Positions 1 through 27,489 of a stretch of 27,489 nt of DNA are shown here, one piece after another. The notes under the pieces are model-generated. The model saw only the letters and a program-made list of their open reading frames with translations, ran no database searches and was not told the DNA's origin. Source of the stretch: Candidatus Electronema aureum (GTDB lineage Bacteria; Desulfobacterota; Desulfobulbia; Desulfobulbales; Desulfobulbaceae). Each line of letters opens with the position of its first letter. The first letter of the stretch is position 1. Where the stretch lies: NCBI GenBank assembly GCA_004284765.1, contig NQJD01000033.1, positions 1-27,489 on the forward strand, read 5' to 3'. A program made the position numbers and the translations under genes.

Positions 1-157
1 CTTTCATAAGAACGGCGTTTGGCTGGCGGGCATTCGCCCTCTGAAAACTGAGACCAAGTCGGAAGTCAACTTTTTCAATATTATATTGTTTTTAATGGTA
101 AATTCAATGTGTTTTTTAGGGAGCCGTCCGCTTTGCCACTCATGGTTCACCATTACC
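1..157 (-). mobile_element. Truncated end of an IS-like repeat, cut by the window edge; perfect inverted copy of 27333-27489
   Basis: The reverse complement of 1-157 matches 27333-27489 at 157/157 positions (compared by eye). Identity stops sharply at 157/158 and 27332/27333. Read outward, the element begins GGTAATGGTGAACCATGAGTGGC (a GGTAATG start recalls IS1-type ends) and carries an outward promoter. No transposase is visible in the window, so the family is unassigned. Confidence 0.5.
80..107 (-). promoter_or_regulatory. Outward-facing sigma70-like promoter inside the left repeat copy
   Basis: Minus strand: TTGAAT (107-102), 16-nt spacer, TATAAT (85-80). The mirror image lies at 27383-27410. 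Confidence 0.4.
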
Positions 158-421
158 TAAACGTTTGCCAGCGGACACGTCCCAGATACAGATGGTCTTG
201 TCATTAGAACCGGAAGCAAGCAAACGACCGTCAGGAGAAAAGGCAACACTATTTACACCATCCGTATGTCCTTCCAGCGTCTGTAAGCGTTTACCAGTCC
301 GTACTTCCCAAATGCCGATGGTCTTATCACTGGAGCCAGAGGCAACAATACGCCCGTCCGGGGGAAATGCAACCCCGTTCACTCTTTCAGAATGATGACC
401 GCTGAACGCGGGCAACTGCAC
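140..421 (-). pseudogene. WD40-repeat fragment: the out-of-frame, 3'-truncated continuation of the STAND NTPase gene
   Basis: Two WD40 units are present ([33 protein letters not shown]; [32 protein letters not shown]). The frame is open upstream to about 527 ([44 protein letters not shown]). It runs into the 157-bp repeat and stops 5 codons inside it (GNGEP*). Confidence 0.75.
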
Positions 422-489
422 CGGATTAGCCTGCGCCCGCAGCGCAGCCTCCTGCCTGTATTCCGGCCCGTTTGTGGGCGACAGTTTTG

Positions 490-2151
490 TCAGTGCATGA
501 AGGGGGAATACAGATGGGCGTACAGCTTACTGCCTTTACTCTCCGCAGCCTCGGCTTTGGCATTCAGGGCCATGCCTGTTTGCAAGGACTCTGCCTGATT
601 AAGCTGGGACACTGCTTGTTTCAACTGGGTCAATGCCTCCTTCGCCCTGTAGGTAGCTCGGAGAGCCAACAGGCTTGACAGCACTGTTGCCACTGCTACT
701 GTCACCGCAACCCAGAACCAAATGCGGACTCTCCGGTTTGCCGCCGCCCTCTCATCAAGATACGCCTGCCGCCCTTTGCTGTGCTCCAGAAACTGCGTAA
801 CCACTGGCTCCAGCAGGGCTATATCACCCACCTCAGCCAATACCTTCGCCAGCTTCTCACCCGTATAAAGCACGCTCCGGTCTGTCCTGTTGCTGTCCCG
901 CCATATCTGCGCATCCCGCAGCAGCGGCCCCTGCTTGTCCATCCACGCCCGATTAGCCTGCAAGATCGGCCCGACAAAGCGGTCATGCACCAGCTCATAC
1001 CAGGCAGCACCGGAGCGGCTTTCGGCGCGGAGCAGGAAGCGGTCTTCCAGCAGGCGCACTGCCCGGTTGTCCATGCCCGCCGTGCTCTCATCCCCCTGAA
1101 AGACCGTGCCCCTCGTGCCTGCGGGCGTGATCAGCTGATGGTCGAACCAATGCCGCAGCTCCAGTTCCGAGACCTTGACCGTGCGCAGCGCATCAGCAAG
1201 CGCAAGCTCGTAGAAATCAGCCAGCGCATGGTCTATGTCGCCCGCGCCCGCAACCTGCTCTGCCGTGATCTCAGCCGCCTGCGCGGTTTTCTCCCAGAGC
1301 TGATAGCAGACCACCTGCAACTGCACCGGCTCAATGTGCTCGCCCGGCCTGGCCTCCTTGCTTCTGCTGGTGCGGATCAGGCTGAGATTGTCCACCAGCA
1401 GCTCTGCCGCGCCGGGCGCAAAGGGCCGTCCCTGCTGCGTCTGCGTAGCTGGTTTGCTGATTGCCGCGAGCGCAGCCTTGCGCCCCATCCGTTCCATGTA
1501 GAATCGCGCCCGCATCCGGTCGGCCATGAGCGGCGCGTATGGCTCCAGCGCAGCCACGTAATCCTCGCGCAGAGCCAGCAGCACGGAGAGCTTGGGGTCA
1601 TCCTGCATGGCTTGGTTGAGCTGGCGGAAGAACGCGGCCCTGTCCTGCCATCTGCCCGGATGGGCGGTGAGGATTTCCTCGAACTGGTCGACAATTAACA
1701 CGCAGACCGGCGCGTCGCCGCTGTCAGACTGGCTCTGCGCCTCGTCCGCAAGCGGCTCATAGCGGTATGTCCGCCCGTCCGCGCTGACCAAGTTGCGCAG
1801 GAAGCTGCTCAGGCGCAGATGCGCCAGCTCCGCCGGAGCCGTGCTGCCCTGATCGAGCTGGAGCATCAGGCTGAAGGCAAAGATGTTGTCAACCGCCTCC
1901 ACGCCTGCGGGCAGGCCGCCGCTGACCCTGCCGACCGGCAGCGCAGCCCGGTTATTCTCCTCCAGCCCCGGAACAAGGCAGGTGTTGATCAAGGAGGTCT
2001 TGCCCGCGCCGGACTGAGCGTAGAAGAGCACCAGCCGCTCCGAGATGACCAGCGACAGCAGGTCGCGGGCCTCGCGTTCCCTGCCGAAGAAGAAGGCGCG
2101 CTCCTTGCGGGTGAAGGAGCGCGGGCCGATGTAGGGGTTGCTTGCGTTCAT
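490..2151 (-). CDS. STAND-class P-loop NTPase (nSTAND/NACHT-like) with a C-terminal TM helix and coiled coil; N-terminal part of a disrupted NTPase-WD40 gene
   Basis: N-terminal [17 protein letters not shown] is followed by Walker [11 protein letters not shown] and Walker [10 protein letters not shown]. This pattern is typical of NTPases fused to WD40 arrays. A TM segment ([21 protein letters not shown]) and a coiled coil follow. The stop at 490-492 lies just after a G5/C5 homopolymer. Confidence 0.8.
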
Positions 2152-2156
2152 TGCCT

Positions 2157-2294
2157 TGAATGAATGTATCTCGATAACGCTTGTGACTCAGACTCATAAG
2201 TACTTGTGACTTTAACTCACAAGTACTATCGAGTTCATCTCATAACCGCTTGTGAGAAAAAGTCACAAGCGCTGTCGAGTTTTCGACCCATGAG
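2157..2294. promoter_or_regulatory. Array of dyad-symmetric operator-like sites (CTTGTGA-N7-TCACAAG) phased at 23 bp, upstream of the STAND NTPase gene
   Basis: Sites lie at 2180-2200 (cttgtga ctcagac tcataag), 2203-2223 (perfect cttgtga ctttaac tcacaag; arms extend to 11 bp) and 2249-2269 (perfect cttgtga gaaaaag tcacaag). Site starts are 23 and 46 bp apart. The intervening 23-bp units are degenerate copies (ctatcgag.., ctgtcgag..). A larger inverted repeat, 2168-2187 versus 2262-2281, matches at 17/20. Confidence 0.55.
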
Positions 2295-2332
2295 AATGTC
2301 TGCCCGGAAGATCAGCGGCTCCGCCTGTTCTG

Positions 2333-2824
2333 TCAAACCAGCACCTGGCAGCCGCATTCCAGCTTGATCAGCACGGGCGAGACGTGGCGGACGGCGCGGT
2401 CTCTGCGGACATGGAGCACCAGCAAGGTGAGCGGGTCAAACACGATCACATCCTTGACTCCCTGCGACAGATAAAAAGGTGGCCCGATTTCCAAGTCCTT
2501 GGCCTCAAAGCCTTTGCTGACCACTTCAATGACGGCTTCAGGAATGATGGTCAGGGCTGCATCCTGCTCTTCCTCGCTTGGCTCATGGCAGAGAATGGAG
2601 ATGTCAGGTCGCTTCAAGCCGCCGGGGAACTGAATATAGACATCCACAGCATGAACGCAGGCGCATTCAGTGCCGTCTGTCTGTTTTATGATGCTTTGAA
2701 CTATGCGTTCAATATGCTTCTGATGCCGGTAAACCGGCTGCGCCTCCCAAAGTGGAAGGCCATTGACAATCTCCAGGCGGATGCCCAGTTCGCTTGCCTG
2801 AAGGATGGATGACTGGATATTCAT
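2333..2824 (-). CDS. Uma2 (DUF820) family endonuclease
   Basis: PD-(D/E)xK-type Uma2 pattern: RPDISILC ... PEAVIEVVSKGFEAKD ... YLSQGVKDVIVFDP. 163 aa. Confidence 0.7.
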   Translation of the reverse strand: MNIQSSILQASELGIRLEIVNGLPLWEAQPVYRHQKHIERIVQSIIKQTDGTECACVHAVDVYIQFPGGLKRPDISILCHEPSEEEQDAALTIIPEAVIEVVSKGFEAKDLEIGPPFYLSQGVKDVIVFDPLTLLVLHVRRDRAVRHVSPVLIKLECGCQVLV

Positions 2825-2901
2825 AGATTACTGTGGTCAGATGTGCAAACAGTTAGTGAAGGAATGAAGGGATTCGCCCTGCTTGATGCTTCATGCCCTC
2901 C

Positions 2902-3897
2902 TCAGCCCCGCAGCCCTGCCTGAAGCTGCCGCAGGTATTCGCCGAAATCGCCCCAGAACACTTTGAACGAAACCTCGTCCATGTAGCGGTTGAGATACGC
3001 CTGCTCCTCAGGCGAAGGGTCGAGCTGGAGGGCGCAGACGCTCTGCAAGCAGTACGAGCGCGTCTTGATCAGGCCGTAGAGCAGGGTGCGGAAATCCCAG
3101 TCCGCCAGCTCGTAGCCCAGCAGCATCAGGGAGGAATCATTGAGGGCCTGCCGCAGACGGTTGGGGATGAGATGGCGGCCTTCTGCAAGGTTGACGAGGA
3201 AGGAAAGGTAGTCGTCCTCGCTGAGAACCAGCGACTCAGGGCAGCTGTCTATGCCGTGCAGATGAAAGACCAGCGGTTCGAGCGCGGTCGGCTGCCAGTC
3301 ATCAGCAAAGGGGCCTGGCGCGGCAATGCGCGGGTGCCAGCAGCAGACCCCGGCGCGCGGCTGCTTGCCTGCGGCCTGCAAAGCCTGCTCCAAAAAGCAG
3401 TGGAACGAGGTGGTCAGGTAAATGGGCAGATCAAAGCTGGCAAGGAGGAGCAGGGGGTCGCTACTTGGCTCGGCAAAACGTGGATAGCCCAAATTGGCCG
3501 CCATCACAGAGAAATGGTGTTCGTCGAACTGCGCGTTTTCCTCTTCCAGTAGGCCGCCCAGAGCACCGCTGCTGTCAGCGGCTTCGGCCAACTCCAGCAA
3601 CCTGCTTTTGGCAAAGTCGAGATACTCCCGCTTAACCCAGTCCTCTGCCCCGGCCAGCTCGCGCATGACCGTGTTGTACTGCGCCGCCGCCGCGATATTG
3701 GCAGCGGAAACCGCAGGCACGGCGTGATGTTCCGTGTACGCCCGCGTCAGCTCCGCATGGCCGCCGAGGAGCAGGTCGTTGTGCACGCGGTTGCTGACTA
3801 TCGGCAAGACCTTGCCGCTGCGCAATTGCTCCAGCATGGCCTGCCGCCAGTCACCGGGGGCGGGCTGCTGCTTTCTGCCTATGGCGATGCGGGGCAT
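2902..3897 (-). CDS. SIR2_2-type (SIR2-like) domain protein, divergent
   Basis: LPIYLTTSFHCFLEQALQAAG ... LVFHLHGIDSCPESLVLSEDDYLSFL ... SLMLLGYELADWDFRTLL matches the TTNYD / HLHG / LvLTedDY / FlGYSlsD layout of SIR2_2 domains. The start is placed at ATG 3897 (MPRIAIG), preceded by GAGGAGGACGCTT. The longer ORF to 3990 overlaps the upstream gene. Confidence 0.7.
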   Translation of the reverse strand: MPRIAIGRKQQPAPGDWRQAMLEQLRSGKVLPIVSNRVHNDLLLGGHAELTRAYTEHHAVPAVSAANIAAAAQYNTVMRELAGAEDWVKREYLDFAKSRLLELAEAADSSGALGGLLEEENAQFDEHHFSVMAANLGYPRFAEPSSDPLLLLASFDLPIYLTTSFHCFLEQALQAAGKQPRAGVCCWHPRIAAPGPFADDWQPTALEPLVFHLHGIDSCPESLVLSEDDYLSFLVNLAEGRHLIPNRLRQALNDSSLMLLGYELADWDFRTLLYGLIKTRSYCLQSVCALQLDPSPEEQAYLNRYMDEVSFKVFWGDFGEYLRQLQAGLRG

Positions 3898-3922
3898 AAG
3901 CGTCCTCCTCAGCTCAATGTGC

Positions 3923-4399
3923 TCAGGCGATGCGCCCGGAACTATACACCTCGGCCAGCGGCAGCTCGCACTGAATGGAGGCAAGGGCAAGCACGTCCTC
4001 CATGCGATGAAAGGCGGCGTAAACCCAGGTGCTGTCGGCCTGCCGGGTTAACCGTTCGATCTTGCAAGCGTATTGACATACCAAGATGTATTCAGCCAGC
4101 GAAGGAATGAGCTGATAATGGGAGAACTTGTCGCCCCGGTCGTATGCTTCCGTGCCGTCGGAAAGTATCTCCACGATGATGACCGGATTGAGCAGGACAT
4201 CCTTCTTGTCATCCGCATACTCTTCTTTCCGGCACACCACAACCACATCAGGATGCGTGTATTTCTCTGCCGACTTGATCTTCACTTTCATGTCGCTGGC
4301 AAAGACTTCGCCGTCAAAGTATTCGTGTCTGACAGAGGAGACTCGCTCTGCGGCAAGATACTCTTCAGGACTGAGCCGGTGCTGTTCACATGCCTGCAT
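3923..4399 (-). CDS. Uma2 (DUF820) family endonuclease, short variant
   Basis: EEYLAAE..RHEYFDGEVFA ... HPDVVVVC ... NPVIIVEILSDGTEAYDRGDKFSHYQLIPSLAEYILV. AGGAG lies 8 nt upstream of the ATG. The segment usually found between the GE-motif and the PD-motif looks about 30 aa shorter than in typical family members (from memory). Confidence 0.7.
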   Translation of the reverse strand: MQACEQHRLSPEEYLAAERVSSVRHEYFDGEVFASDMKVKIKSAEKYTHPDVVVVCRKEEYADDKKDVLLNPVIIVEILSDGTEAYDRGDKFSHYQLIPSLAEYILVCQYACKIERLTRQADSTWVYAAFHRMEDVLALASIQCELPLAEVYSSGRIA

Positions 4400-4413
4400 G
4401 AGACAATCTCCTG

Positions 4414-5259
4414 TTATGGTTCCATGATCACCCGGAAACCCAAGTGGCCGAGCTTGCTGCTCGCGGCTGAGAAGCCCCGCATGGCGCAGCGGAGGTCGTG
4501 CGGCATGTTTTTGTAACAGCCGCCGCGATGAATGCGGAAGACCGACGCGGAAGCAGGCGAGAGGTCATCCCGCCCGTCCTGCTGAAAGGGATAGGCAAAC
4601 TCAGTCTGGGCCGGGCTGCTGCCCCAGATGGTGGATGTCCATTCCCGCACATTGCCGAGCAGATCAAGGCAGCCGTAAGAACTTGCCCCTGCGGGAAAGG
4701 CTGTGACTGGCGTGGTTGAGGCGGAAGCGCAGTTGCAGCAGTTGTCCTGCCAGTCATTGCCCCAAGGATAGAAACGGCCATCGGCGGAACGGGCTGCTTT
4801 CTCCCATTCTGCCTCGCTCGGCAGACGGTAGATACGTCCGCTCTCCGCACTGAGCCAAGCGCAGTATGCCGCCGCGTCATGCCAGCTCACGCCGATGACG
4901 GGATGCTCCTCGCAGCCTGCGGGCGGACGGCGCAGCAGCCAGCCTTTCGGGGCCTCGTGCCCGGCCATGCGGACAAAGGCTTCGTACTGCCGGTTGGTGA
5001 CAGGTGTCTTTCCGATAAGAAAGCTGGGCAAAATGACCTCATGCAGCGGGGTCTCCTGCGCGGGGATGCCTGCCGCTGAAGCACTTCCCATCATGAACGG
5101 GCCGGAGGACACTTCAACCGGCTCAGGTTCATAGGGCAGCCGGGGCTTGGCCTTGCTCTTGCTTTCAGAATGCAGCGTGAGATTGCGGATGATAATATCA
5201 CCGCTGCCTGCGACAATATTCCCGCTGCCGGAAATGTCTTGGCGGACAGTGTCGGGCAT
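4414..5259 (-). CDS. FGE-sulfatase (SUMF1/formylglycine-generating-enzyme-like) domain protein with an N-terminal G/N/V-rich motif
   Basis: GPFMMGS..HEVILPSFLIGKTPVTNRQYEAFV..HPVIGVSWHDAAAYCAWLS..YRLPSEAEWEKAAR..YPWGN..GNVREWT..HRGGCY is the classical FGE-sulfatase fold signature. The N-terminal 31 aa (DTVRQDISGSGNIVAGSGDIIIRNLTLHS) mirror the C-terminus of the upstream protein. The start ATG overlaps the upstream stop (TGATG, 5257-5261). Confidence 0.85.
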   Translation of the reverse strand: MPDTVRQDISGSGNIVAGSGDIIIRNLTLHSESKSKAKPRLPYEPEPVEVSSGPFMMGSASAAGIPAQETPLHEVILPSFLIGKTPVTNRQYEAFVRMAGHEAPKGWLLRRPPAGCEEHPVIGVSWHDAAAYCAWLSAESGRIYRLPSEAEWEKAARSADGRFYPWGNDWQDNCCNCASASTTPVTAFPAGASSYGCLDLLGNVREWTSTIWGSSPAQTEFAYPFQQDGRDDLSPASASVFRIHRGGCYKNMPHDLRCAMRGFSAASSKLGHLGFRVIMEP

Positions 5260-5669
5260 CAGATGGTGATGCTGATATTGCCGGCAGTCACATCGCCGGT
5301 GCCAGCAACAACATTCCCATGACCGACAACGTGCTGCTCAACAGTGGTCTGCCGGATTGCCTCCTCGCCCCCCGGCTGCTTTTTGAGCGCAGCAAGAAGC
5401 TGCTGCGCTAGCTGATGCAGCTCTTGGTCTTTATCTACTCCGGCATCCTTGAGAGCCTGCTCCAGCATCTGCCGTCTCGGTGCAGCCTCTGGCTTCTGAC
5501 TGACCAAATCAACCGCATCTGTCACATCGGCATTGCCGCCGTAGCGGCTCTGGATGAGCTGCTTCAATCCGTTGTAAGCATCTTTGACAGCTGCTGCGGC
5601 AACGTTCTTTAGCGATTCTGCCGCGCCAAGCGCAACAGCAGCAACGATGGTGGTGGTGACTGGCTCCAT
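5259..5669 (-). CDS. Small all-helical protein (Bell/HeLo-like N-terminal region) with a C-terminal G/N/V-rich motif
   Basis: The start is placed at ATG 5669 (MEPVTTT), 6 nt after AAGGAG. The ORF-track start at 5744 is a TTG lying inside a TTGACA box. The protein has a hydrophobic first helix (MEPVTTTIVAAVALGAAESLKNVAAAAVKDAYNGLKQLI), then charged helices, then the tail TTVEQHVVGHGNVVAGTGDVTAGNISITI*. Confidence 0.7.
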   Translation of the reverse strand: MEPVTTTIVAAVALGAAESLKNVAAAAVKDAYNGLKQLIQSRYGGNADVTDAVDLVSQKPEAAPRRQMLEQALKDAGVDKDQELHQLAQQLLAALKKQPGGEEAIRQTTVEQHVVGHGNVVAGTGDVTAGNISITI

Positions 5670-5715
5670 GATATTCTCCTTGGCTTTTGTTGAATGTGGA
5701 TATTCGCCTTGCATC

Positions 5716-5744
5716 TTGACAAGTTCCTGCTGCACTGTCAACAA
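5716..5744 (-). promoter_or_regulatory. Possible promoter of the accessory operon
   Basis: Minus strand: TTGACA (5744-5739), 17-nt spacer, CAAGAT (5721-5716). The -10 is weak. TTGACA and TGTCAA also form an inverted pair here. Confidence 0.25.
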
Positions 5745-8490: not shown

Positions 8491-9075
8491 ATGGATAATA
8501 TATTTACGCTTACAGAACATGCATTTGGTTTACTCGTCAGGTTATATGGAGAAAAGAAGAAAGATGGAAGTATATTGTTGTCATGCGAAGATGAAAAAAG
8601 AAATAGAAAAATTGTTTCTGAGGATCAAGCGTTTGAAAGAATCAACGCCGCAGTCCGTATGAATCTTGAACAACTTGAACGGAATATTGATCAAGCAAGA
8701 AAAGAATCAAATCAATTTTTTAAACTTACGCTGGTATTTTCCAGTCTTGGTTTTTTCGTTGTTCTTACTGCGGTCGCGCTGCTGCTTGGCGGACAGGTGG
8801 TTGCTGGAGTCGTTTCTGCTGTTGCAAGTACAATACCTGAAGTCACCGCCGCTTTGTTTTTCAAGAAAGACAGAGAGCTGAGAGACTCTATTGAGAGATA
8901 TCATCAACACGTTATGGAGTCGCAACGCATTTTGACCATGATTGACGTGGCGGAAACTGTTCAGAATCACGAAGAAAGAGATTCGATCAAACGGCAGATT
9001 ATTTGCAAAGCTCTCGGTATTGATTCAACTGCAATTAACATCCAAAGCGAGTCTGCTTTTCCCATTGTAAATTGA
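8491..9075 (+). CDS. Hypothetical 2-TM membrane protein in an AT-rich segment
   Basis: Two adjacent TM helices (LTLVFSSLGFFVVLTAVALLL / VVAGVVSAVASTIPEVTAALFF) are flanked by charged helical regions. The architecture resembles the 2-TM module called TRADD-N-associated membrane domain, from memory only. A sampled line (8521) is about 35% GC. Confidence 0.45.
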   Translation: MDNIFTLTEHAFGLLVRLYGEKKKDGSILLSCEDEKRNRKIVSEDQAFERINAAVRMNLEQLERNIDQARKESNQFFKLTLVFSSLGFFVVLTAVALLLGGQVVAGVVSAVASTIPEVTAALFFKKDRELRDSIERYHQHVMESQRILTMIDVAETVQNHEERDSIKRQIICKALGIDSTAINIQSESAFPIVN

Positions 9076-13977: not shown

Positions 13978-14118
13978 TATAGCCAGAGCAACATAATTTG
14001 AACCGTCGTATCTGTCATTTCGAGCGGAGCGAGAAATCTCATGCCAAGGACGAAGAGGAGATTCCTCGCTCCGCTCGGAATGACATTCAAGTTCACTTTA
14101 TGCTGCTTCAGCTATAAC
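13978..14118 (+). mobile_element. 141-bp MITE/REP-like palindromic element, copy A
   Basis: 139/141 identical to 26999-27139 in the same orientation. It holds an internal 27-bp stem (gtcatttcgagcggagcgagaaatctc / gagattcctcgctccgctcggaatgac, with one wobble and one mismatch). Imperfect terminal inverted repeats are TAGCCAGAGCAAC / GCTGCTTCAGCTA. Both copies are bracketed by TA. Confidence 0.7.
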
Positions 14119-14184: not shown

Positions 14185-14322
14185 AATCCTAAGCTAATGG
14201 GAATGTACATCCTAAGTGCTTGAGAGTCTCAATCCCAAGCTAATGGGATTTGCAATCCTAAAGGTTTGGGATTTACATTCCTAAGCTAATGGGATTTGAA
14301 ATCCTAAGCGTTTGGGATTTTG
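14185..14322. repeat. Tandem array of six 23-bp dyad-symmetric units (three 46-bp super-units)
   Basis: Units start at 14185, 14208, 14231, 14254, 14277 and 14300. The consensus is AATCCTAAGCTAATGGGATTTnn, and the best unit is aatccca-agctaa-tgggatt (7-N6-7). Odd units carry AAGCTAAT in the centre and even units carry AAGnGyTT. The array starts 27 bp beyond the stop of the TPR gene. Confidence 0.85.
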
Positions 14323-20982: not shown

Positions 20983-22969
20983 GATAAGACCTCTTGCATA
21001 AGCGAGAATTGAGCCATACCGGACAGATGCCGTCAGCATCCGTCTCCTGCGCCGCCAGATCAGCTTCCGCTGCCGGGGCAGCGGAAAGGGCATGGGCCAA
21101 GCGCAGCTCGCGCAGCATGGCCCGCTTCTTGGTCTGGTGGCTGTGCATCCGCCTGAGGATGCTGTCCAAGGTTCGCACCGCGCTGAGGACGTGCGGCCCC
21201 TTGTTGAGCATCACGCATTCGGCCCGGTCGCCCATGGCCGCGTCGCTGATTTCGGCGCGGGAGGGCATTCCGTCCTTGGCCAGTGCCTCCAGCACCTGCG
21301 TGGCCCAGATCACCGGCACATGCGCGGCCTCGCAGATCCAGAGGATTTCCTCCTGCACCTCAGCCAGCCGCTCGAAGCCGCATTCAATGGCTAAATCGCC
21401 CCGTGCGATCATCACCCCGCAGCAGGGCGACTGCATGGCCGCGAGGAGTATGTCCGGCAGATTCTCAAAGCCTGCCTTGGTCTCGATTTTCAGCACCAAG
21501 GCAGGCTGTCTGCCGCCGAGACGGGCCAGCTGGCTGCGCAGCTGCTCCACGTCGGCGGCGCAGTTGGCGAAGGACAGCTCGACCACGTCGGCATGAACAA
21601 CGGCAAAGGCCAAGTCTTCGATGCCCTTGTCGCCCCGCAGTCTGCCGCCGCCGGGCTTGGTCTGGGTGATGCGGACAAAAACCTCCGCCGCCTCCACCTT
21701 GTCAATGATGCCGCCGATCTTGCCATCGTCGAACCAGACCGGCTCGCCTGGCCTGACTTGGTCGAAGACTTCCGGGATGGTGCAGCCGATCATCGCCGGG
21801 GTGAGCAGGTGGTCCGCGCTGTCCAGTGCCGCCGGACGGCCTGGGCGGAGGTCGCGGGTGATGAGAAGCTGGTCGCCGGGCAGAAGGAGCAGGGCGTTCT
21901 CTGCCATCGGCAGCTCGCCGACCACGCATTCCCGCTTCCGTCTCTTGGCCGGGCCGCGTTTGTGGCGGAGGATCGTGCCGGGGGTGATATAGACGGTTTT
22001 CACCGCCTCGGCCCAGCAGCCCTTGGCGGTCACGTCAGCGATGAGCAGCAGCCGCTTGGCTCCGCGCGCATCGCGGAGGCTGATCTGCCGTCCCGACCGG
22101 GCGACGGCCAGCCAGTCCTCCGGCACCGGTAGGCAGAGATCTGCCGCTGAAGGCGGCGACTGAGGATCAGTCTCGGCAGTCAGCCAGATCCGCCCCGGCG
22201 CGGTGACATTGCCGCAGGCATCGCGGCAGGGCCGGACGCGGGCCGCTGCCAATCCCGGCTCCACCGGCCCGGTGCGCAGCTTCGGCCCGGCCAAGTCCAT
22301 CACCACCTTGCAGGAGCGGCCCTGCGCCTGCTCGGCCTGCCGCAAGTGGCCGATCATCCGCAGCCACGCCTCTGGCCCGTCGTGGGCGCAGTTGACCCTC
22401 ATGCAGTCCATGCCCTGCCGAAGCAGCTCCTCCACCAAGGCGGAGTTGTCCGCCGCCTCGCTCGGCATGGTGACCATGATCCGCACCCCGCGCCCGGCAG
22501 CCGCCTCGCCGAGCAGTGCCTCAGCGTGCTCGGCAAGGAGCCGCTCGCCGACAGCGAAGGCCACGCCCCGGTTTTCCGGCGGCGGCATTGGCTGGCCAGT
22601 GAGGCGGCGGAGCATGTCCAGCACCGCGTCCACGGTGGCCAGAACATGGGACTCGGCCCGCCCCAGCGAGGAGAAGCCGAGCGCGGCCAGCCGCCTCTGC
22701 AAGGGGCGGAGGTCGCGGCGGCGCAAGGCCAGATAGTGAAGAAGGTTGCGCGCGCTTTCCCGGTAATGGGGGTGGGCCGCAGCGAGACGGGCTTCTGTCC
22801 GCTCATCGGCGGCGGCCAGCTCCGCCCGGATGGCAGCCAGCTGGTCGCGGACGCTTTGCAGCTCCGCGTCGTCCTCTGCCAGAGCCAGCGGCGGCAGGCG
22901 CTCCTTCAGCTTTTTTGTTGCGGTGTTCTTCCGTGTGTCCTCGTGCTTGTGCGCCGTGATCATCATCAT
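20966..22969 (-). CDS. Atypical pyruvate-kinase-family protein (PK barrel plus long N-terminal helical extension, no C-terminal allosteric domain)
   Basis: PK barrel motifs: GMDCMRVNCAHDG, MDLAGPKLRTG, LKIETKAGFENL, MIARGDLAIECG, VIWATQVLEALA..PSRAEISDAA, VMLNKGPH. The start is probably one of three ATGs at 22969/22966/22963, after GGAGGA. The ORF-track TTG at 23068 lies in a TTGACA box. Confidence 0.7.
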   Translation of the reverse strand: MMMITAHKHEDTRKNTATKKLKERLPPLALAEDDAELQSVRDQLAAIRAELAAADERTEARLAAAHPHYRESARNLLHYLALRRRDLRPLQRRLAALGFSSLGRAESHVLATVDAVLDMLRRLTGQPMPPPENRGVAFAVGERLLAEHAEALLGEAAAGRGVRIMVTMPSEAADNSALVEELLRQGMDCMRVNCAHDGPEAWLRMIGHLRQAEQAQGRSCKVVMDLAGPKLRTGPVEPGLAAARVRPCRDACGNVTAPGRIWLTAETDPQSPPSAADLCLPVPEDWLAVARSGRQISLRDARGAKRLLLIADVTAKGCWAEAVKTVYITPGTILRHKRGPAKRRKRECVVGELPMAENALLLLPGDQLLITRDLRPGRPAALDSADHLLTPAMIGCTIPEVFDQVRPGEPVWFDDGKIGGIIDKVEAAEVFVRITQTKPGGGRLRGDKGIEDLAFAVVHADVVELSFANCAADVEQLRSQLARLGGRQPALVLKIETKAGFENLPDILLAAMQSPCCGVMIARGDLAIECGFERLAEVQEEILWICEAAHVPVIWATQVLEALAKDGMPSRAEISDAAMGDRAECVMLNKGPHVLSAVRTLDSILRRMHSHQTKKRAMLRELRLAHALSAAPAAEADLAAQETDADGICPVWLNSRLCKRSYQNESQ

Positions 22970-23147
22970 TTCCTCCGCGTGCAGCGGCAGATTGGATTGA
23001 TCGGCTCCGGCTGGTTGATGTTCAGGCAACTGCGGAGAAAAGTACCCTGCGACCAGCCCGTCTGTCAACGAGAACCGCAGGATGGCGACCTATGGCGGCG
23101 GCTTCTGTCAGCAAGCAAGAGATAGAATGCTGTCCGCTGGCAGAGGA

Positions 23148-23285
23148 CACCAGTGCGCAGGCAGCCTCCTCACCAGTGTCGAGGACGGCCCCTCACTGGT
23201 GATGTCCGCACCTCGACACTAGTGTGCAGCGTGGCTCCTCACTGGTGAGGAGAGTGGCTGGACACTGGTGAGGAGGATGGAGAAG
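23148..23285. repeat. Six-unit 23-bp-phased array built on the octamer CACCAGTG/CACTGGTG
   Basis: Octamers start at 23148, 23171 (CACCAGTG), 23194 (CACTGGTG), 23217 (CACTAGTG), 23240 and 23263 (CACTGGTG), spaced exactly 23 bp throughout. A perfect 16-bp inverted repeat pairs 23165-23180 with 23261-23276. A local hairpin, ctcctca-ctgg-tgaggag, lies at 23235-23252 over the stop codon of the acyltransferase gene. Confidence 0.8.
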
Positions 23286-25014
23286 AAGCCAGCAGCTCGC
23301 CCTCAATATACCGGCTGCGCTTCTGCGCAGTGAGGCGGGCAAGGTCAACCACTACAAGGCCGTCCACGCAGCTGCTGAAGTCGGCATCCACGTTGAAGTC
23401 CAAGAAGCGCACGCCGCCCGGCTCGCAGAGGGCGGCGTACTGCTTGTACAGGGGCGGAACGCTCACGCCCATATTTTGGAGCAGATGCTTCAGGCGTTTG
23501 AAATCCTCGGCGCAGTCCTTGCCGCTGAACTCCTGCGCCAGCGCTGTCTGCGGGCTGGCATAGACAAAGGGGGTGCGCGAGCAGTGCGGCCCGCCGCCGT
23601 AGTGGAGCTGGTAGAAGTAGATCAGCAGGTCTTTGGCACTCTGCGGCATGGCGCTGCTGATGGAGACCGGGCCAAAGAGGTGCCGGTATTGCGGATTCTT
23701 GGCTAAGAACGCGCCGATGCCGTACCAGAGATAATCCAAGCTGCGCTTGCCCCAGTAGCGCGGCTGGACAAAGCTCCGTCCCAGCTCCAGGCCGGAGTTA
23801 AGGAACCAGCGGTGCTCCGGGCCGAAATCAAAGAGACTGTGGGTGTAGAGTCCTTCCAGCCCGTGTTCGGCGATGACGCTGGCCGCATCCGTGAAGCGGT
23901 AGGCACCGACTATTTCCAAGTCGTTCTCATCCCAGAGAACAAGGTGCTGGTAATAGCTGTCAAAGCGGTCAATGTCCCGCCGCCTGCCGGTGCCTTCCTC
24001 CACCGCCCTGAACGCGGTCTCACGCAGGCGGCCAATCTCCCGCAGCAGCGGCGAGGACTCCTGCCCGGCAGCGAGGAATATCAGCTTGCCGTCCGGGGTC
24101 TTGCCCAGCAGCTCCGCCTCCTTCAGGCACTTCTTCAGGTCGCTGCGGCGTTCCGGCAGGGCGACGGCGCTCTCTGTCCGCAGCAGCGGTGCTTTGCCCT
24201 TGCCGATGCGATAGAGGTGCTTCCTGATGAGCTTGACCTTCTTCTCGGCGGCAAAGGGCAGGCTGCGGCAGACTGAATACGGGATGATCTCGCCGACAGT
24301 GAACTTGAGCCGCCGCTTCTGCTGGCGGAACATCTCCTGCACCAAAAGGGCGGTGGAGAGCGGCTTCCACAGGGCCGAGGCGGCGTAGAAGCTGACTGAG
24401 TTCCTGCCGTCCACATGAACAGGCAGGATCGGGGCTTTGGCCTTCTCGGCGATCTTGAGAAAGCCCTTGCGCCACTTGCCGTCCTTGATGCCGCTCAGGC
24501 TGAAGCGCGAGACCTCGCCCGCCGGGAAGACAATCACCGCCTCCTCATTGAGCAGGGCCGCGCTGATCAGGCCAAGCTGCTCCTTGGTGGACGACGCGCC
24601 GCCCATGTTGTTGACCGGCAGCAGGCATGGCCCCAGCGGCTTGATCTGGGACAACAGGCTGTTGGCGACAATGCGGACATCGGAGCGCACCTCGTGAATC
24701 AGCTTGAGCAGGGCAAGGCCGTCGAGCGAGCCGATGGGATGGTTGGCGATGATCACCACCCTGCCGCAGGGCGGGATGTTCTCCCGCTCGCGCTGCGAGA
24801 CCGTGTAGCTGAAGGCGAAATGCTCCAAGGCCTGCTCGACGAAATCCATGCCTTTGAGGTGGGGATACCGGGCGGCGAAGGCGGTGAAGTCGTCCTCGCG
24901 CAGCAGGCGGCGGAGCACAGGCCGCACCGCCGGGCCGAGGAAGGGGCTGTTCTGCACAGCCGGATAATGGTCGGACAGCACTTGCTCAACGGTGAACATA
25001 GGCGCACCTCTCAT
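23239..25014 (-). CDS. Bifunctional PlsC-type O-acyltransferase / OlsB-like GNAT N-acyltransferase (OlsF-like aminolipid synthase)
   Basis: The N-terminal half carries the HX4D acyltransferase motif (IIANHPIGSLDG) and VFPAGEVSR. The C-terminal half is an OlsB/hemolysin-like GNAT (LREIGRLRETAFRAVEEGTGRRRDIDRFDSYYQHLVLWD..IVGAYRF). An alternative start lies at ATG 24999 (MFTVEQ). The last ~15 codons are encoded by the 23-bp repeat array. Confidence 0.7.
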   Translation of the reverse strand: MRGAPMFTVEQVLSDHYPAVQNSPFLGPAVRPVLRRLLREDDFTAFAARYPHLKGMDFVEQALEHFAFSYTVSQRERENIPPCGRVVIIANHPIGSLDGLALLKLIHEVRSDVRIVANSLLSQIKPLGPCLLPVNNMGGASSTKEQLGLISAALLNEEAVIVFPAGEVSRFSLSGIKDGKWRKGFLKIAEKAKAPILPVHVDGRNSVSFYAASALWKPLSTALLVQEMFRQQKRRLKFTVGEIIPYSVCRSLPFAAEKKVKLIRKHLYRIGKGKAPLLRTESAVALPERRSDLKKCLKEAELLGKTPDGKLIFLAAGQESSPLLREIGRLRETAFRAVEEGTGRRRDIDRFDSYYQHLVLWDENDLEIVGAYRFTDAASVIAEHGLEGLYTHSLFDFGPEHRWFLNSGLELGRSFVQPRYWGKRSLDYLWYGIGAFLAKNPQYRHLFGPVSISSAMPQSAKDLLIYFYQLHYGGGPHCSRTPFVYASPQTALAQEFSGKDCAEDFKRLKHLLQNMGVSVPPLYKQYAALCEPGGVRFLDFNVDADFSSCVDGLVVVDLARLTAQKRSRYIEGELLASSPSSSPVSSHSPHQ

Positions 25015-25108
25015 TGCTCTGCGGAGTTTTTCTTGGTTCCGTCCAGAAGAGAGGATACCCTGCGCCTGTTACGATTGCGTTATGGTCAGGTGTGAGATGC
25101 GCTTGAAT

Positions 25109-25146
25109 AAAAAAAACGGCAGAAGCAGCAGGACGCGCTTCTGCCG
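25109..25146 (-). terminator. Rho-independent terminator of the PHP-domain gene
   Basis: On the minus strand, a perfect 10-bp stem cggcagaagc/gcttctgccg (25146-25137 with 25126-25117) and a 10-nt loop are followed by U8 (25116-25109). It lies 20 nt after the stop codon. Confidence 0.8.
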
Positions 25147-25166
25147 GACAACAGCTCCAGCCGCTC

Positions 25167-26777
25167 TTACTCGTAGGTCACAACTAACTGCGCTGCTTGG
25201 CTGGCCGAGCCTTCATACGCCTCAGCGGTGCGCTCGCCGGTGCCGGTGATGATGATCGCCATGCCGTTGTTGGCTGACCAGCCGCTGCGGTTGACGATCT
25301 CCTGCACGATGTCCCTCAGGTCAGGGGTCTGCTGCCCTGCGCCTGCCTGGCCGACGGTGCTCCACGCCACTGGTGCCCAAGTTACAGAGGCCGTGGTTGT
25401 CGGACGGCTGCTGATGTTGTTGGATGCCGTGGTGAAGGTGGCCGCATTGTCGGCGGCCTGGCCTTTGATGGTCAGTGTGGTCGTGCCGGAGTTGGTCTCA
25501 TCCACAGTGAACTGAATATAGGCGTTGGTGATGGTCGCGCCCTGCGGAATGCCGAGGTTGGTGAAGCGCATTCCCACGTACTGATTGCCGGTGGTGGTGG
25601 AGTCATAAACCAGCTCCAAGTCAGAACTGTTGGTGTACACCGTGCCGCCGGTCTGCCGCTGCTCGGCATCGTCGCTGCCTGCTGCCACCCGTGCGGAAAC
25701 TGTGGTGCTGCTGCCGCCTGCCTCGCCGGTCATGGAGATGGGCGAGGAGATGGCCTCGTCGCCGTCCTGCTGCGTGACCTTCACATAATAGTAGTCGCCT
25801 TCAGCGGCGGTCACGCTGCCGGTGATGACCGGATGCGCCTGATTGGGATTCCACGTCTGCGCAACCGCGCCATTTTTGATCAGCTGCACGGTGGAGAAGA
25901 CCTCGTTGTTGCCGTCATTGGCCTCGATGCGCAGGGCGTGGGTGCCGGGATCCAAAACCGAACCCATCTCCGCGCTGCTCAGGGTGAAGGAGAGGGTCAG
26001 GTTCTTGTCGAGCGTGGAGAACATGCGGCGGGCGTTGAGTGCTTCCATGATCGCGGCGCGGGTCTTGGCGGTGGCCAGCACGGCCAGACGGTAGTCGGTG
26101 TCCGTGCCCCACGTGGCGGTGTGGTTGTCGTCGCCGCCTGCTGCGCCGATGTCCCAACCACGAGAAATGGCCTCGTCAAAGAAGCTTTTGCTGCCGTCGT
26201 TGGTGTAGTAGCCGTCGTTGTAATAGTAGGTGTCGAAGTCGTCGGCCTTGTTGAACAGCTCCATGCCCACGAACTTGTCAGACGGCGTGGTGGCGAAGTG
26301 GCTGAACTCTTGACCAGTGCTGTCTTGCCGACCAGGATGGTTGAAGAAGGCCACGCCGCTGCGGCTGTTGAGCCATGTCACCAGCTCCGGGAAGGTGTCT
26401 GTGGCGGTGCTGGTGGAGGCGCAGTAATCGCTGGTGCCGATCACGGTCACATGGCCGTAGGTGCTGTGGGACCACTCAAAGCCAGCGAGGGCGACAAAGC
26501 TGCCGTCGCTGTTGTAGGAATCCGCAGTGCTTTGGATGGTGCTCCATTCCGTGGAGCTGACCTGCTCGGCATGATCAGCAAGGGCGAAGAAGTCCAGACC
26601 GGCAGTGTCCCGCGCATAAGCGTAAGCCTGAGCAGGCGTGCCCGTGCCATCCGAGACGTTGGAGTGGTTGTGCAGGTGGCCGTAATAGACATCGTAGGCT
26701 GCTGCCGGGTCAGCGGCAAGACATGCGCCGACACCTGCGAGGATGAATATCCCCAGTCTGCTGTAGCTCTTTTGCAT
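25167..26777 (-). CDS. Secreted PHP-domain (CehA/McbA-like) metallohydrolase with a beta-rich C-terminal region
   Basis: Signal peptide MQKSYSRLGIFILAGVGACLAADPAAA. PHP motifs are YYGHLHNHSNVSDG, LDFFALADHAE, GFEWSH and FNHPG. The C-terminal ~200 aa are Thr/Gly/Ser-rich and beta-like. Confidence 0.7.
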   Translation of the reverse strand: MQKSYSRLGIFILAGVGACLAADPAAAYDVYYGHLHNHSNVSDGTGTPAQAYAYARDTAGLDFFALADHAEQVSSTEWSTIQSTADSYNSDGSFVALAGFEWSHSTYGHVTVIGTSDYCASTSTATDTFPELVTWLNSRSGVAFFNHPGRQDSTGQEFSHFATTPSDKFVGMELFNKADDFDTYYYNDGYYTNDGSKSFFDEAISRGWDIGAAGGDDNHTATWGTDTDYRLAVLATAKTRAAIMEALNARRMFSTLDKNLTLSFTLSSAEMGSVLDPGTHALRIEANDGNNEVFSTVQLIKNGAVAQTWNPNQAHPVITGSVTAAEGDYYYVKVTQQDGDEAISSPISMTGEAGGSSTTVSARVAAGSDDAEQRQTGGTVYTNSSDLELVYDSTTTGNQYVGMRFTNLGIPQGATITNAYIQFTVDETNSGTTTLTIKGQAADNAATFTTASNNISSRPTTTASVTWAPVAWSTVGQAGAGQQTPDLRDIVQEIVNRSGWSANNGMAIIITGTGERTAEAYEGSASQAAQLVVTYE

Positions 26778-26998
26778 CGCTCGTTCCTCTCCGTGAAGAT
26801 TGAAGGCTGCCTGATTGCAGCGGCCCTCAATCTAAATAGGGAACATCAGGGTTTGATGAGGGTTGGGTTAGCCTTCTGTGAAAAACATCCCTGTGCTGCT
26901 TGGCGCGGGCTATCTTTTGGCTGAAGCCTCTTGCTGTAGCTACGAAGGGTATTCCTGCCTGAATAGGTTAGGGATTGCTTCGCTTTCTCCCGCGCCGT

Positions 26999-27139
26999 TA
27001 TAGCCAGAGCAACGTAATTTGAACCGTCGTATCTGTCATTTCGAGCGGAGCGAGAAATCTCACGCCAAGGACGAAGAGGAGATTCCTCGCTCCGCTCGGA
27101 ATGACATTCAAGTTCACTTTATGCTGCTTCAGCTATAAC
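26999..27139 (+). mobile_element. 141-bp MITE/REP-like palindromic element, copy B
   Basis: 139/141 identical to 13978-14118 in the same orientation (the differences are A/G at the 16th base and T/C at the 65th base of the element). Confidence 0.7.
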
Positions 27140-27287: not shown

Positions 27288-27350
27288 ATGCCATCCTGCC
27301 CCAGCTGCGGCACTGAGAAAGTCATAAAAAACGGTAATGGTGAACCATGA
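27288..27350 (+). pseudogene. N-terminal zinc-ribbon fragment of an IS1/IS1595-type transposase (InsA-like), cut by the terminal repeat
   Basis: MPSCPSCGTEKVIKNG resembles the CPSC....V.(K/R)NG start of IS1 InsA-type proteins. The frame enters the 157-bp repeat at 27333 and ends NGEP*, the same tail as the WD40 fragment at the other end. Confidence 0.4.
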
Positions 27351-27489
27351 GTGGCAAAGCGGACGGCTCCCTAAAAAACACATTGAATTTACCATTAAAA
27401 ACAATATAATATTGAAAAAGTTGACTTCCGACTTGGTCTCAGTTTTCAGAGGGCGAATGCCCGCCAGCCAAACGCCGTTCTTATGAAAG
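27333..27489 (+). mobile_element. Truncated end of an IS-like repeat; perfect inverted copy of 1-157
   Basis: See feature 1-157. The outward promoter is TTGAAT (27383-27388), 16 nt, TATAAT (27405-27410). An ATG at 27483 is a possible, unsupported gene start at the window edge. Confidence 0.5.

Follow-up and report, generated by a model that had tools for sequence, protein, structure and literature searches.

A 27,489-nt stretch of DNA from Candidatus Electronema aureum, a freshwater cable bacterium (GenBank assembly GCA_004284765.1, contig NQJD01000033.1, forward strand; hereafter the window), was analysed for a cluster of six genes, all encoded on the minus strand and including two Uma2 genes. 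We regard it as somewhat probable that the cluster is a single horizontally acquired, STAND-based conflict cassette of the regulated cell-death or abortive-infection type, which received two later insertions and is now decaying. Its core is an ancestral three-gene unit, consisting of an FGE-sulfatase-like (FGS) gene with a variable N-terminus, a SIR2-like gene, and a gene for an nSTAND1 NTPase followed by a transmembrane (TM) helix and repeats. The most informative feature of the cluster, overlooked in an initial annotation made from the sequence alone, is a motif shared by the FGS protein and the Bell protein encoded directly upstream of it. The source chromosome has a size of 2.94 Mb (record OW818638.1), and in the fetched locus L001, which reaches past the start of the window, position 15260 - x is equivalent to position x of the window.

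Gene order and conserved core

The six genes, designated g1 to g6 in the order of transcription, comprise a putative Bell or HetE-N-type gene (g1, 5259-5669; 136 amino acids (aa), starting with MEPVTTT and continuing as a hydrophobic helix), an FGS gene of the C-type-lectin fold (g2, 4414-5259; 281 aa), Uma2 gene a (Uma2a; g3, 3923-4399; 158 aa), a SIR2-like gene (g4, 2902-3897; 331 aa), Uma2 gene b (Uma2b; g5, 2333-2824; 163 aa), and a gene for an nSTAND1 NTPase with one predicted TM helix (g6, 490-2151; 553 aa), which is the 5′ piece of a disrupted STAND-TM-WD40 gene and is followed on the same strand by an open reading frame (ORF) for a WD40 fragment (140-421; 93 aa). The longest ORF of g1 begins at a TTG at 5744, and the ATG at 5669 has an AAGGAG Shine-Dalgarno sequence upstream. 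The ORF coordinates bore out the common orientation and the intergenic gaps reported initially, which are exactly -1, 14, 25, 77, and 181 nt from g1 to g6, the first being a TGATG stop/start overlap. The block is also GC-rich, as had been claimed, with a GC content of 0.57-0.63 in g1, g2, g4, and g6 and about 0.545 in both Uma2 genes, against 0.50 in the rpsU-thyX neighbourhood and the surrounding genome. Pfam searches gave strong matches for FGE-sulfatase (PF03781, E 4e-52; g2, aa 45-278), Uma2 (E 2e-21 for g3 and 5e-13 for g5), SIR2_2 (E 5e-20; g4), nSTAND1 (E 1e-34; g6), and WD40 (E 1e-29; the continuation of the STAND gene at 158-511), and the domain labels of the initial annotation stood, with a low score for HetE-N only.

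A metagenome scan with the FGS protein yielded no close relatives (best identity, 50%), and the five best loci carried FGS, SIR2-like, and nSTAND1 genes consecutively, without Uma2. A genome scan with the SIR2-like alignment gave 53 loci, one of which, that of Electronema sp. KV, has the same six-gene order at 75-90% identity; the others were nearly all from filamentous Chloroflexota (Caldilineaceae, Anaerolineae, Ardenticatenaceae, and Promineifilaceae), together with one from Competibacteraceae. Among the 50 non-Electronema loci with a SIR2-like gene, when only loci with room on the side concerned were counted, 46 of 48 had an nSTAND1 gene immediately 3′ of the SIR2-like gene and 37 of 49 had an FGS gene immediately 5′ of it, each in the same orientation. 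Uma2 was present within 3 kb in none of the 50. The genes of related cassettes often overlap or are spaced by a few tens of bases. A four-gene order without Uma2 (HetE-N, FGS, SIR2_2, and a large partial gene) was found on the P0195 contig, and locus L152 likewise reads HetE-N, FGS, and the start of a SIR2-like gene, without Uma2. Homologues of the core genes are thus co-localised in other genomes, and their order recurs in dozens of unrelated ones, beyond chance, which upholds the initial idea of a conflict-system-like cluster assembled from STAND, WD40, FGS, SIR2-like, and Bell-like parts in a bacterium that forms multicellular filaments. Because its GC content exceeds that of the genome and its relatives are almost all from Chloroflexota, the cassette appears to have been acquired horizontally.

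The gene order had been said to match no named defence system. PADLOC hidden Markov models (HMMs) applied to all seven ORFs named none either, and such an assignment was rejected; the only matches were those of the two Uma2 proteins to PDC-S03 (E 1e-12 and 4e-12), which is a PADLOC candidate family only, and a weak one to ThsA (E 6e-5). A scan with NCBIfam gave FGE-family matches below threshold only.

For the SIR2-like protein, 265 relatives (E <=1e-30) were recovered from 1.84 billion cluster representatives, and an alignment of 114 sequences was built from 113 full-length relatives and the window protein. Solved SIR2 NADases could be aligned with the family profile. With PDB 9v0g and its mutant 9v12 (TTNYD changed to TTAYD and FHG to FAG) as references, S164 corresponds to the catalytic Asn and H214 to the catalytic His. 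Of the 114 sequences, 95 have Ser and 4 have Asn at position 164; at position 214, 42 have His, 34 have Phe, 22 have Tyr, and 11 have Leu. The site of the glycine-rich loop of ThsA types reads P-I-I-S-N in this family, in a weak alignment. Since the subfamily lacks the catalytic Asn and mostly lacks the catalytic His, a role as a canonical NADase effector is unlikely, and the designation "SIR2 effector" was not sustained; a scaffold or ligand-binding role may be envisaged instead. Genes for TIR+DrHyd hold the equivalent place upstream of nSTAND1+TM+BetaPropeller genes in the examined portion of supplement 1 of PMC8195603, which suggests that an active effector of the NAD or nucleotide kind formerly occupied the slot.

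In g6, the Walker A motif of nSTAND1 is encoded at 1993-2010 (minus strand) and the predicted TM helix, a hydrophobic segment with NRRVR just before it, at 661-723 (minus strand). One hydrophobic segment follows the NTPase in 45 of 47 long STAND homologues, usually with Arg or Lys before it, and from the positive-inside rule the repeat array would probably be extracytoplasmic. The C-terminal repeats of the homologues are mostly WD40, with pentapeptide repeats in L149, and the architecture nSTAND1+TM+BetaPropeller is catalogued in the portion of supplement 1 of PMC8195603 that was examined. The STAND proteins begin directly with the NTPase domain, without an N-terminal effector of their own. 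As they carry no such effector, it would most plausibly be provided by the FGS protein with its N-terminal module (X-FGS).

The cluster could also be divided into two adjacent, independent modules, one formed by Bell and the motif-bearing FGS with FGS as the sole sensor, as in Bab/Agp, and the other by the SIR2-like and nSTAND1-TM-WD40 proteins, as in the pairs of TIR+DrHyd and nSTAND1+TM+BetaPropeller. The SIR2-STAND adjacency is tighter than that of FGS and SIR2, and SIR2-STAND occurs without FGS; two-gene nSTAND1 neighbourhoods are listed in the examined part of the same supplement, other genes part FGS from SIR2 in L147 and L151, and Bell and FGS are intact in the window although STAND is destroyed. 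We nevertheless hold this division to be unlikely, because X-FGS lies directly 5′ of the SIR2-like gene, on the same strand and with short gaps, in the 37 loci given above, because this adjacency persists across many different FGS N-terminal modules, which argues for a functional linkage, and because a STAND protein without an N-terminal effector would most plausibly draw on X-FGS. The two stacked systems considered initially (5669-3923 and 3897-140) are wrong either way, since a cut between them separates FGS from the SIR2-like gene that it directly precedes and so divides the conserved unit.

The spacers of the cassette serve as insertion slots in relatives (L151, 1788-3031; L147, 1392-2288; L108, 8821-11266). 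In L108, which derives from a Caldilinea metagenome-assembled genome (MAG), two genes lie between the SIR2-like and STAND genes and are predicted from their sequences to encode a histidine kinase and a response regulator.

FGS N-terminus and the motif shared with the Bell protein

The FGS protein's N-terminus is a swappable effector or adaptor slot. The N-terminal modules identified in 42 cassette FGS proteins were CHAT (25), effector-associated domains (EAD7, 4; EAD1, 2; EAD8, 2), TIR (1), and bDLD1 (1), and all effector or EAD modules were located N-terminal to the FGS domain, in agreement with the syntax of Kaur et al., in which extra domains are always on the N-terminal side of FGS (PMC7159879). 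Many further FGS homologues carry just a short G/N/V/I-rich head before the domain, for example NIHIHNVQGLIIGDHGQIVQ and GGISIGQVNAQFVNLVNS, and one of these is the Caldilinea FGS of L108, with the head MTDTTIAGNVQGLIQNNSGTVNITY, for which no partner was found within the L108 locus. In the AlphaFold2 (AF2) model of the window FGS protein, the block-mean predicted local distance difference test (pLDDT) score was at least 83, and mostly above 90, from aa 41, and below 50 for aa 1-31. The label "FGE" probably does not denote a formylglycine-generating enzyme here, just as "SIR2" probably does not denote an NADase; the former judgement depends partly on the cysteine pair that we take to be a mark of FGE. 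An association with a diversity-generating retroelement (DGR) was considered for FGS and rejected: Pfam scans of the other large ORFs of this window found no reverse transcriptase, and no repeat of the template/variable type was present in the window, none involving the 3′ end of the FGS gene.

The AF2 model of the Bell protein shows a helical bundle (aa 4-107; block-mean pLDDT about 70-84) followed by a tail (aa 106-136; below 50). The Bell C-terminal motif is encoded at 5262-5345 (minus strand; aa 109-136, TVEQHVVGHGNVVAGTGDVTAGNISITI), and the FGS N-terminal motif is encoded downstream of it in the direction of transcription, at 5173-5250 (minus strand; aa 4-29, TVRQDISGSGNIVAGSGDIIIRNLTL). 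Alignment of the Bell tail TVEQHVVGHGNVVAGTGDVTAGNISI with the FGS head gave a BLOSUM62 local score of 71 over 26 ungapped residues, compared with a mean of 21 (sd, 4.5; maximum, 49) for 5000 shuffles and with 37 for the next best among the N-termini of 1803 other ORFs. The motif is G/N/V/I-rich, with no proline in the 26 aligned residues.

The two copies of the motif vary in concert. In type A, found in L001, L147, and L091, the Bell tail is GHGNVVAGTGDV (GHGNVVAG) and the FGS head is GSGNIV(A/S)GSGD; in type B, found in L144 and L145, they are SGKVN(I/V)ISGTDQ and SGKVNVVSGG(G)D, respectively. The types of the Bell and FGS motifs change together in these five related cable-bacterial pairs, and cognate types score above crossed ones. 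The -1 overlap of the two genes is also present in L144, L145, and L147.

Bell domains that are 73-76% identical over the N-terminal ~72% of the query (P0014-P0016) are encoded in Electrothrix directly 5′ of genes for NOD-like receptors (NLRs) of the NB-ARC/TPR type, and these Electrothrix proteins have a tail different from that of Electronema. A Bell homologue of Kribbella and its NB-ARC/TPR NLR neighbour share a clear motif (VDVRGAQGIQIGDHGTQTVHF and VDARNAQGLYVGDHGHQHVHH, respectively). An HMM of the Bell family matched none of the ORFs of the Chloroflexota loci; the coupling to Bell is not general in those loci. The layout of the Bell and FGS genes resembles, as judged from the sequences, that of Bell/BASS amyloid signalling pairs, with a lectin-like receptor replacing the NLR.

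Several observations weigh against this reading of the motif or of the cassette. The HetE-N (Bell-like) score of g1 was 17.5 bits, under the curated cut-off of 25 bits, although a precomputed PF20701 match is on record; a Foldseek search of PDB with the Bell model had no match with E <4, and the Bell profile found spurious helical-repeat matches only among PDB sequences. The matched types are just two, and come from closely related cable-bacterial sequences. L151 and L152 have Bell tails of another (Electrothrix) type, GIGMDIG...GGIGVKI, which give with the FGS head a weak raw score of 29 in L151 and a score of 22 in L152, a value equalled or exceeded by 1109 of 5000 shuffles; given this weak similarity, the pairing is not demonstrable for all Bell-FGS neighbours. 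Comparable G-rich segments separate the FGS domain from EAD1 or another helical domain in L014 and L098, so the motif segment could be a structural extension of the FGS clade and not a signal. The Bell gene of Electronema sp. KV (L091, 7094-7540) is frameshifted just before the tail, with the motif GKGHVIAGTGDVTAGDINITL encoded in the +1 frame, which may be a real lesion or a MAG assembly error. With respect to the core, 12 of 49 SIR2-STAND loci have no upstream FGS gene, and FGS is thus not obligatory; moreover, another His of the SIR2-like protein, H212, is nearly invariant in the family, so that an unconventional catalytic activity may be retained.

The G-rich, beta-prone segments present before FGS even behind EAD1 or helical domains, and a tail-head similarity that is low in L151 and within the range of shuffles in L152, would also suit a motif that is not an amyloid at all, either a homotypic beta-strand or adaptor segment or an extension of the FGS clade copied onto Bell by local recombination, possibly with a role in kin recognition or development instead of defence. 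This is in our estimate a poor prospect, because the G/N/V/I composition without proline, the length of about 25 aa, the placement at the C-terminus of an effector and the N-terminus of a receptor encoded by neighbouring genes, and the predicted disorder fit the published description of BASS, and because Bell homologues with canonical NLR partners share the layout.

Uma2 insertions, decay, and surroundings

The two Uma2 genes appear to be later and independent insertions of mobile or selfish nuclease genes into spacers of the operon, that of Uma2a being lineage-specific. Uma2a and Uma2b, at 26% identity, come from separate subfamilies. None of the 50 non-Electronema cassettes contains Uma2, and the GC content of both genes is lower than that of their neighbours in the cluster. 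The Uma2b subfamily (P0301-P0420; more than 100 cluster representatives, 162-164 aa) shows 71-97% identity over the full length among Electronema (Desulfobulbales), several Gammaproteobacteria, and Accumulibacter (Betaproteobacteria), and a paralogue of 84% identity is encoded elsewhere on the same chromosome; this high conservation across classes, together with the paralogue in the same genome, suggests that Uma2b is a recently spreading mobile gene. In relatives, the spacer between FGS and SIR2 is occupied by Uma2 and a PhdYeFM/PIN pair (L151) or by Uma2 and a MazE-like gene (L147). Uma2a is located next to FGS in every cable-bacterial copy that reaches that position (L091, L144, L147, and L151), and owing to this retention an accessory role of Uma2 may be considered.

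Interleaved Uma2 nucleases had been taken initially as part of the system. If all six genes formed one multi-effector system, STAND-WD40 would be the sensor, and SIR2 (NAD depletion), Uma2 (DNA cleavage), and Bell (membrane damage) would act as parallel effectors, for which one can adduce the co-orientation and tight spacing of the six genes, the retention of their order in Electronema sp. KV, the position of Uma2a beside FGS in every sufficiently long cable-bacterial copy, and the match of Uma2 to the PADLOC candidate family; this arrangement is nonetheless very doubtful in view of the lack of Uma2 in the 50 cassettes, on the P0195 contig, and in L152, the low identity of Uma2a and Uma2b, the near-identity of the Uma2b subfamily across bacterial classes and its paralogue elsewhere in the genome, the slot shared with toxin-antitoxin genes in relatives, and a SIR2-like protein without the catalytic Asn.

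The copy of the cassette in this genome is decaying. Gene g6 is a pseudogene, disrupted by a frameshift and by two insertion sequence (IS) elements, which lie mostly beyond the window and kill the STAND gene. The intact orthologue of Electronema sp. KV (L091, 10770-14456) encodes 1228 aa with nSTAND1, one TM helix, a long WD40 array, and a Sel1-like C-terminus. The g6 ORF (490-2151) is 83% identical to aa 1-550 of this protein, and tblastn with the KV protein matched four pieces in L001; aa 548-667 map to another frame, with the frame change near 505-511 of the window. The frameshifted continuation, consisting of a linker and two WD40 repeats, is encoded at 158-511 (minus strand). After the end of the STAND ORF at 490, just these two repeats are left before an IS1-family element, the end of which (1-157) truncates the WD40 array and contributes the last 18 nt (...GNGEP*) of the 140-421 ORF; ORFs adjoining this end in L001 match the InsA zinc ribbon and DDE_Tnp_IS1. 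The remainder of the propeller lies outside the window, as a WD40 piece, a second IS (DDE_Tnp_1), and a 513-aa piece with WD40 and the C-terminus, the STAND remnants being located at L001 15995-16450 and 17450-18973 with the second IS between them. The initial description of a sixth STAND-TM-WD40 gene is therefore right as to the domains and wrong as to a single gene, because the frameshift splits the STAND ORF from WD40. Uma2a, compared with its orthologues of 198-203 aa in L144 and L147, has lost 96 nt in frame (32 aa) between direct repeats of GTCTTTGC and has an altered C-terminus, and its Pfam match covers profile positions 43-165 only. Bell, FGS, SIR2-like protein, and Uma2b are equal in length to their orthologues.

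The spacer between Uma2b and STAND contains an array of five 17-nt units (TCACAAGYRYTWWYGAG) on alternating strands (2170-2279), with five matches compared with 0.17 expected by chance and an RNA fold z-score of -4.1 for the array. Electronema sp. KV has one unit more, and the 152 fetched loci contain the unit nowhere but in this spacer, both in KV and in the copies of this locus.

Both ends of the window (1-157 and 27333-27489) are perfect inverted copies, 157 nt in length, of one IS1-family end starting GGTAATGGTGAACCATGAGTGG, and the copy at 27333 sits within another insA-like ORF (MPSCPSCGTEKVIKNG). With inverted IS copies at both ends, the 27-kb segment could invert or move as a composite element. 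Beyond the window, 3′ of the STAND remnants, L001 19025-20846 contains a BrnT toxin gene, a small gene, and a RecD2-like helicase gene, and this neighbourhood looks like a small defence or toxin-antitoxin island.

Elsewhere in the window, a 194-aa protein with a CyanoTRADDas_TM domain (E 2.5e-14), another domain of the conflict-system vocabulary of Kaur et al., is encoded at 8491-9075 (plus strand) among housekeeping genes, 3 kb from the cluster. A palindromic element of 141 nt resembling a miniature inverted-repeat transposable element is present in two 99%-identical copies (13978-14118 and 26999-27139), with the ends TATAGC...GCTATA and a long internal hairpin, and three tandem 46-nt repeats (AATCCTAAGCTAATGGGA...) are located at 14185-14322, just downstream of the 3′ end of a minus-strand TPR gene. 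A second GC-rich island (21000-27000; GC 0.636 versus 0.50) is probably another horizontal acquisition; it encodes on the minus strand an acyltransferase+GNAT protein, a DUF3604-like protein, and a protein of 700 aa that has a pyruvate-kinase-barrel-like domain. Rfam and tRNA scans of the window found no RNA genes, and a promoter and terminator scan gave nothing above the shuffle background. A mobile-element origin was also considered and rejected, as megablast found no match in plasmid and phage collections.

Proposed mechanism and relation to known systems

The cassette would be composed of a cytosolic lectin-fold FGS protein with an N-terminal effector or adaptor, a degenerate SIR2-like protein, and a membrane-anchored nSTAND1-TM-repeat protein. 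In the Electronema version, the effector slot of FGS is reduced to a G/N/V/I-rich tail of about 26 residues matching the Bell tail. The FGS lectin domain or the propeller, or the two together, would sense an invader or danger signal; NTP-dependent oligomerisation of STAND, with the SIR2-like protein as a scaffold, would then cluster the N-terminal tails of FGS, which would take a cooperative cross-beta fold; and this fold would template the Bell tail, so that the freed N-terminal helix of Bell damages the membrane and kills the cell. Our further proposal is a tentative one, on balance slightly disfavoured: that a Bell pore-former is nucleated via the 26-aa motif by an FGS lectin-fold receptor, in concert with a degenerate SIR2-like protein and an nSTAND1 anchored in the membrane, that amyloid-type (BASS-like) signalling thus extends beyond NLR/TGP receptors, and that Bell has been rewired between NLR partners in Electrothrix and FGS partners in Electronema by a tail swap.

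If this is true, the lectin-fold FGS protein represents a third receptor class in bacterial amyloid cell-death signalling, and such signalling extends to cable bacteria and to Chloroflexota-derived cassettes, within a new triad family of several hundred members; the 25-aa tail would stand in, as a plug-in of this slot, for a CHAT, TIR, or EAD module. Because cable bacteria form long multicellular filaments, a cell-suicide system would be biologically meaningful in them. The analysis also defines a widespread, uncharacterised three-gene cassette of filamentous Chloroflexota that appears to have been transferred into cable bacteria, offers the near-intact copy of Electronema sp. KV at L091 7094-14456 as a concrete construct for testing, and calls for caution with the labels "SIR2" and "FGE" in annotation.

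Among known systems, the SIR2 antiphage systems (Thoeris ThsA, DSR, and SIR2-HerA) share with the cassette the SIR2_2 fold family and a weak match to ThsA, and differ from it in that here Ser takes the place of the catalytic Asn, the position of the catalytic His is variable, and there is no ThsB, HerA, or Ago partner. Avs and bNACHT resemble it in the STAND NTPase, the C-terminal repeat sensor, and the presumed oligomerisation switch. They are, however, single-gene systems, whereas the STAND protein described here belongs to the nSTAND1 clade, has a TM helix in mid-protein and no N-terminal effector domain, depends on neighbouring genes, and was matched by no Avs or NLR model of PADLOC.

A further likeness is to the gene pairs for Bell/BASS-NLR amyloid signalling in filamentous bacteria (Dyrka et al., bioRxiv 10.1101/2020.01.06.895854): a small MEP... 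protein with predicted helices has a G/N-rich C-terminal tail of about 25 aa, the neighbouring gene's product carries the tail again at its N-terminus, the host forms multicellular filaments, and close Bell homologues in Electrothrix and Kribbella have a canonical NB-ARC/TPR partner. The motif partner here is FGS only and not an NLR, and the E. coli pair Bab/Agp, which has a non-NLR partner and an antiphage function (Ibarlosa et al., bioRxiv 10.1101/2024.11.07.622273), shows that an NLR partner is not universal. STAND is here a separate gene, two to four genes away and without the motif, and the Electronema motif is assigned to none of BASS1-11. A literature search found no paper combining "amyloid signaling" with "FGE-sulfatase", and an FGS protein as a motif-bearing partner of Bell was not found described in the literature searched.

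The FGS-centred and nSTAND1 conflict systems described by Kaur, Iyer, Burroughs, and Aravind (eLife 2021, PMC8195603; eLife 2020, PMC7159879) are compared on the basis of the examined portions of these sources. In those portions, [EAD or effector]-NTPase-FGS fusions are described, whereas here FGS, SIR2-like protein, and STAND are encoded by three genes, and a triad split into X-FGS, a degenerate SIR2-like protein, and nSTAND1-TM-repeats was not found described in the examined portions of PMC8195603 and its supplement 1. The Rossmannoid partner is here a degenerate SIR2-like protein, and the frequent DGR association of their systems has no counterpart in this window, in whose other large ORFs no reverse transcriptase was found. 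The likenesses are a strict architectural syntax with effectors and EADs N-terminal to FGS, the nSTAND1 clade with its nSTAND1+TM+BetaPropeller architecture, the preponderance in multicellular bacteria, and a Rossmannoid gene of the NAD/nucleotide type directly 5′ of nSTAND1+TM+BetaPropeller, as in the TIR+DrHyd neighbourhoods. The parts of the cassette, namely nSTAND1+TM+BetaPropeller, FGS with N-terminal effectors, EADs, HetE-N, and Bell/BASS, are all catalogued.

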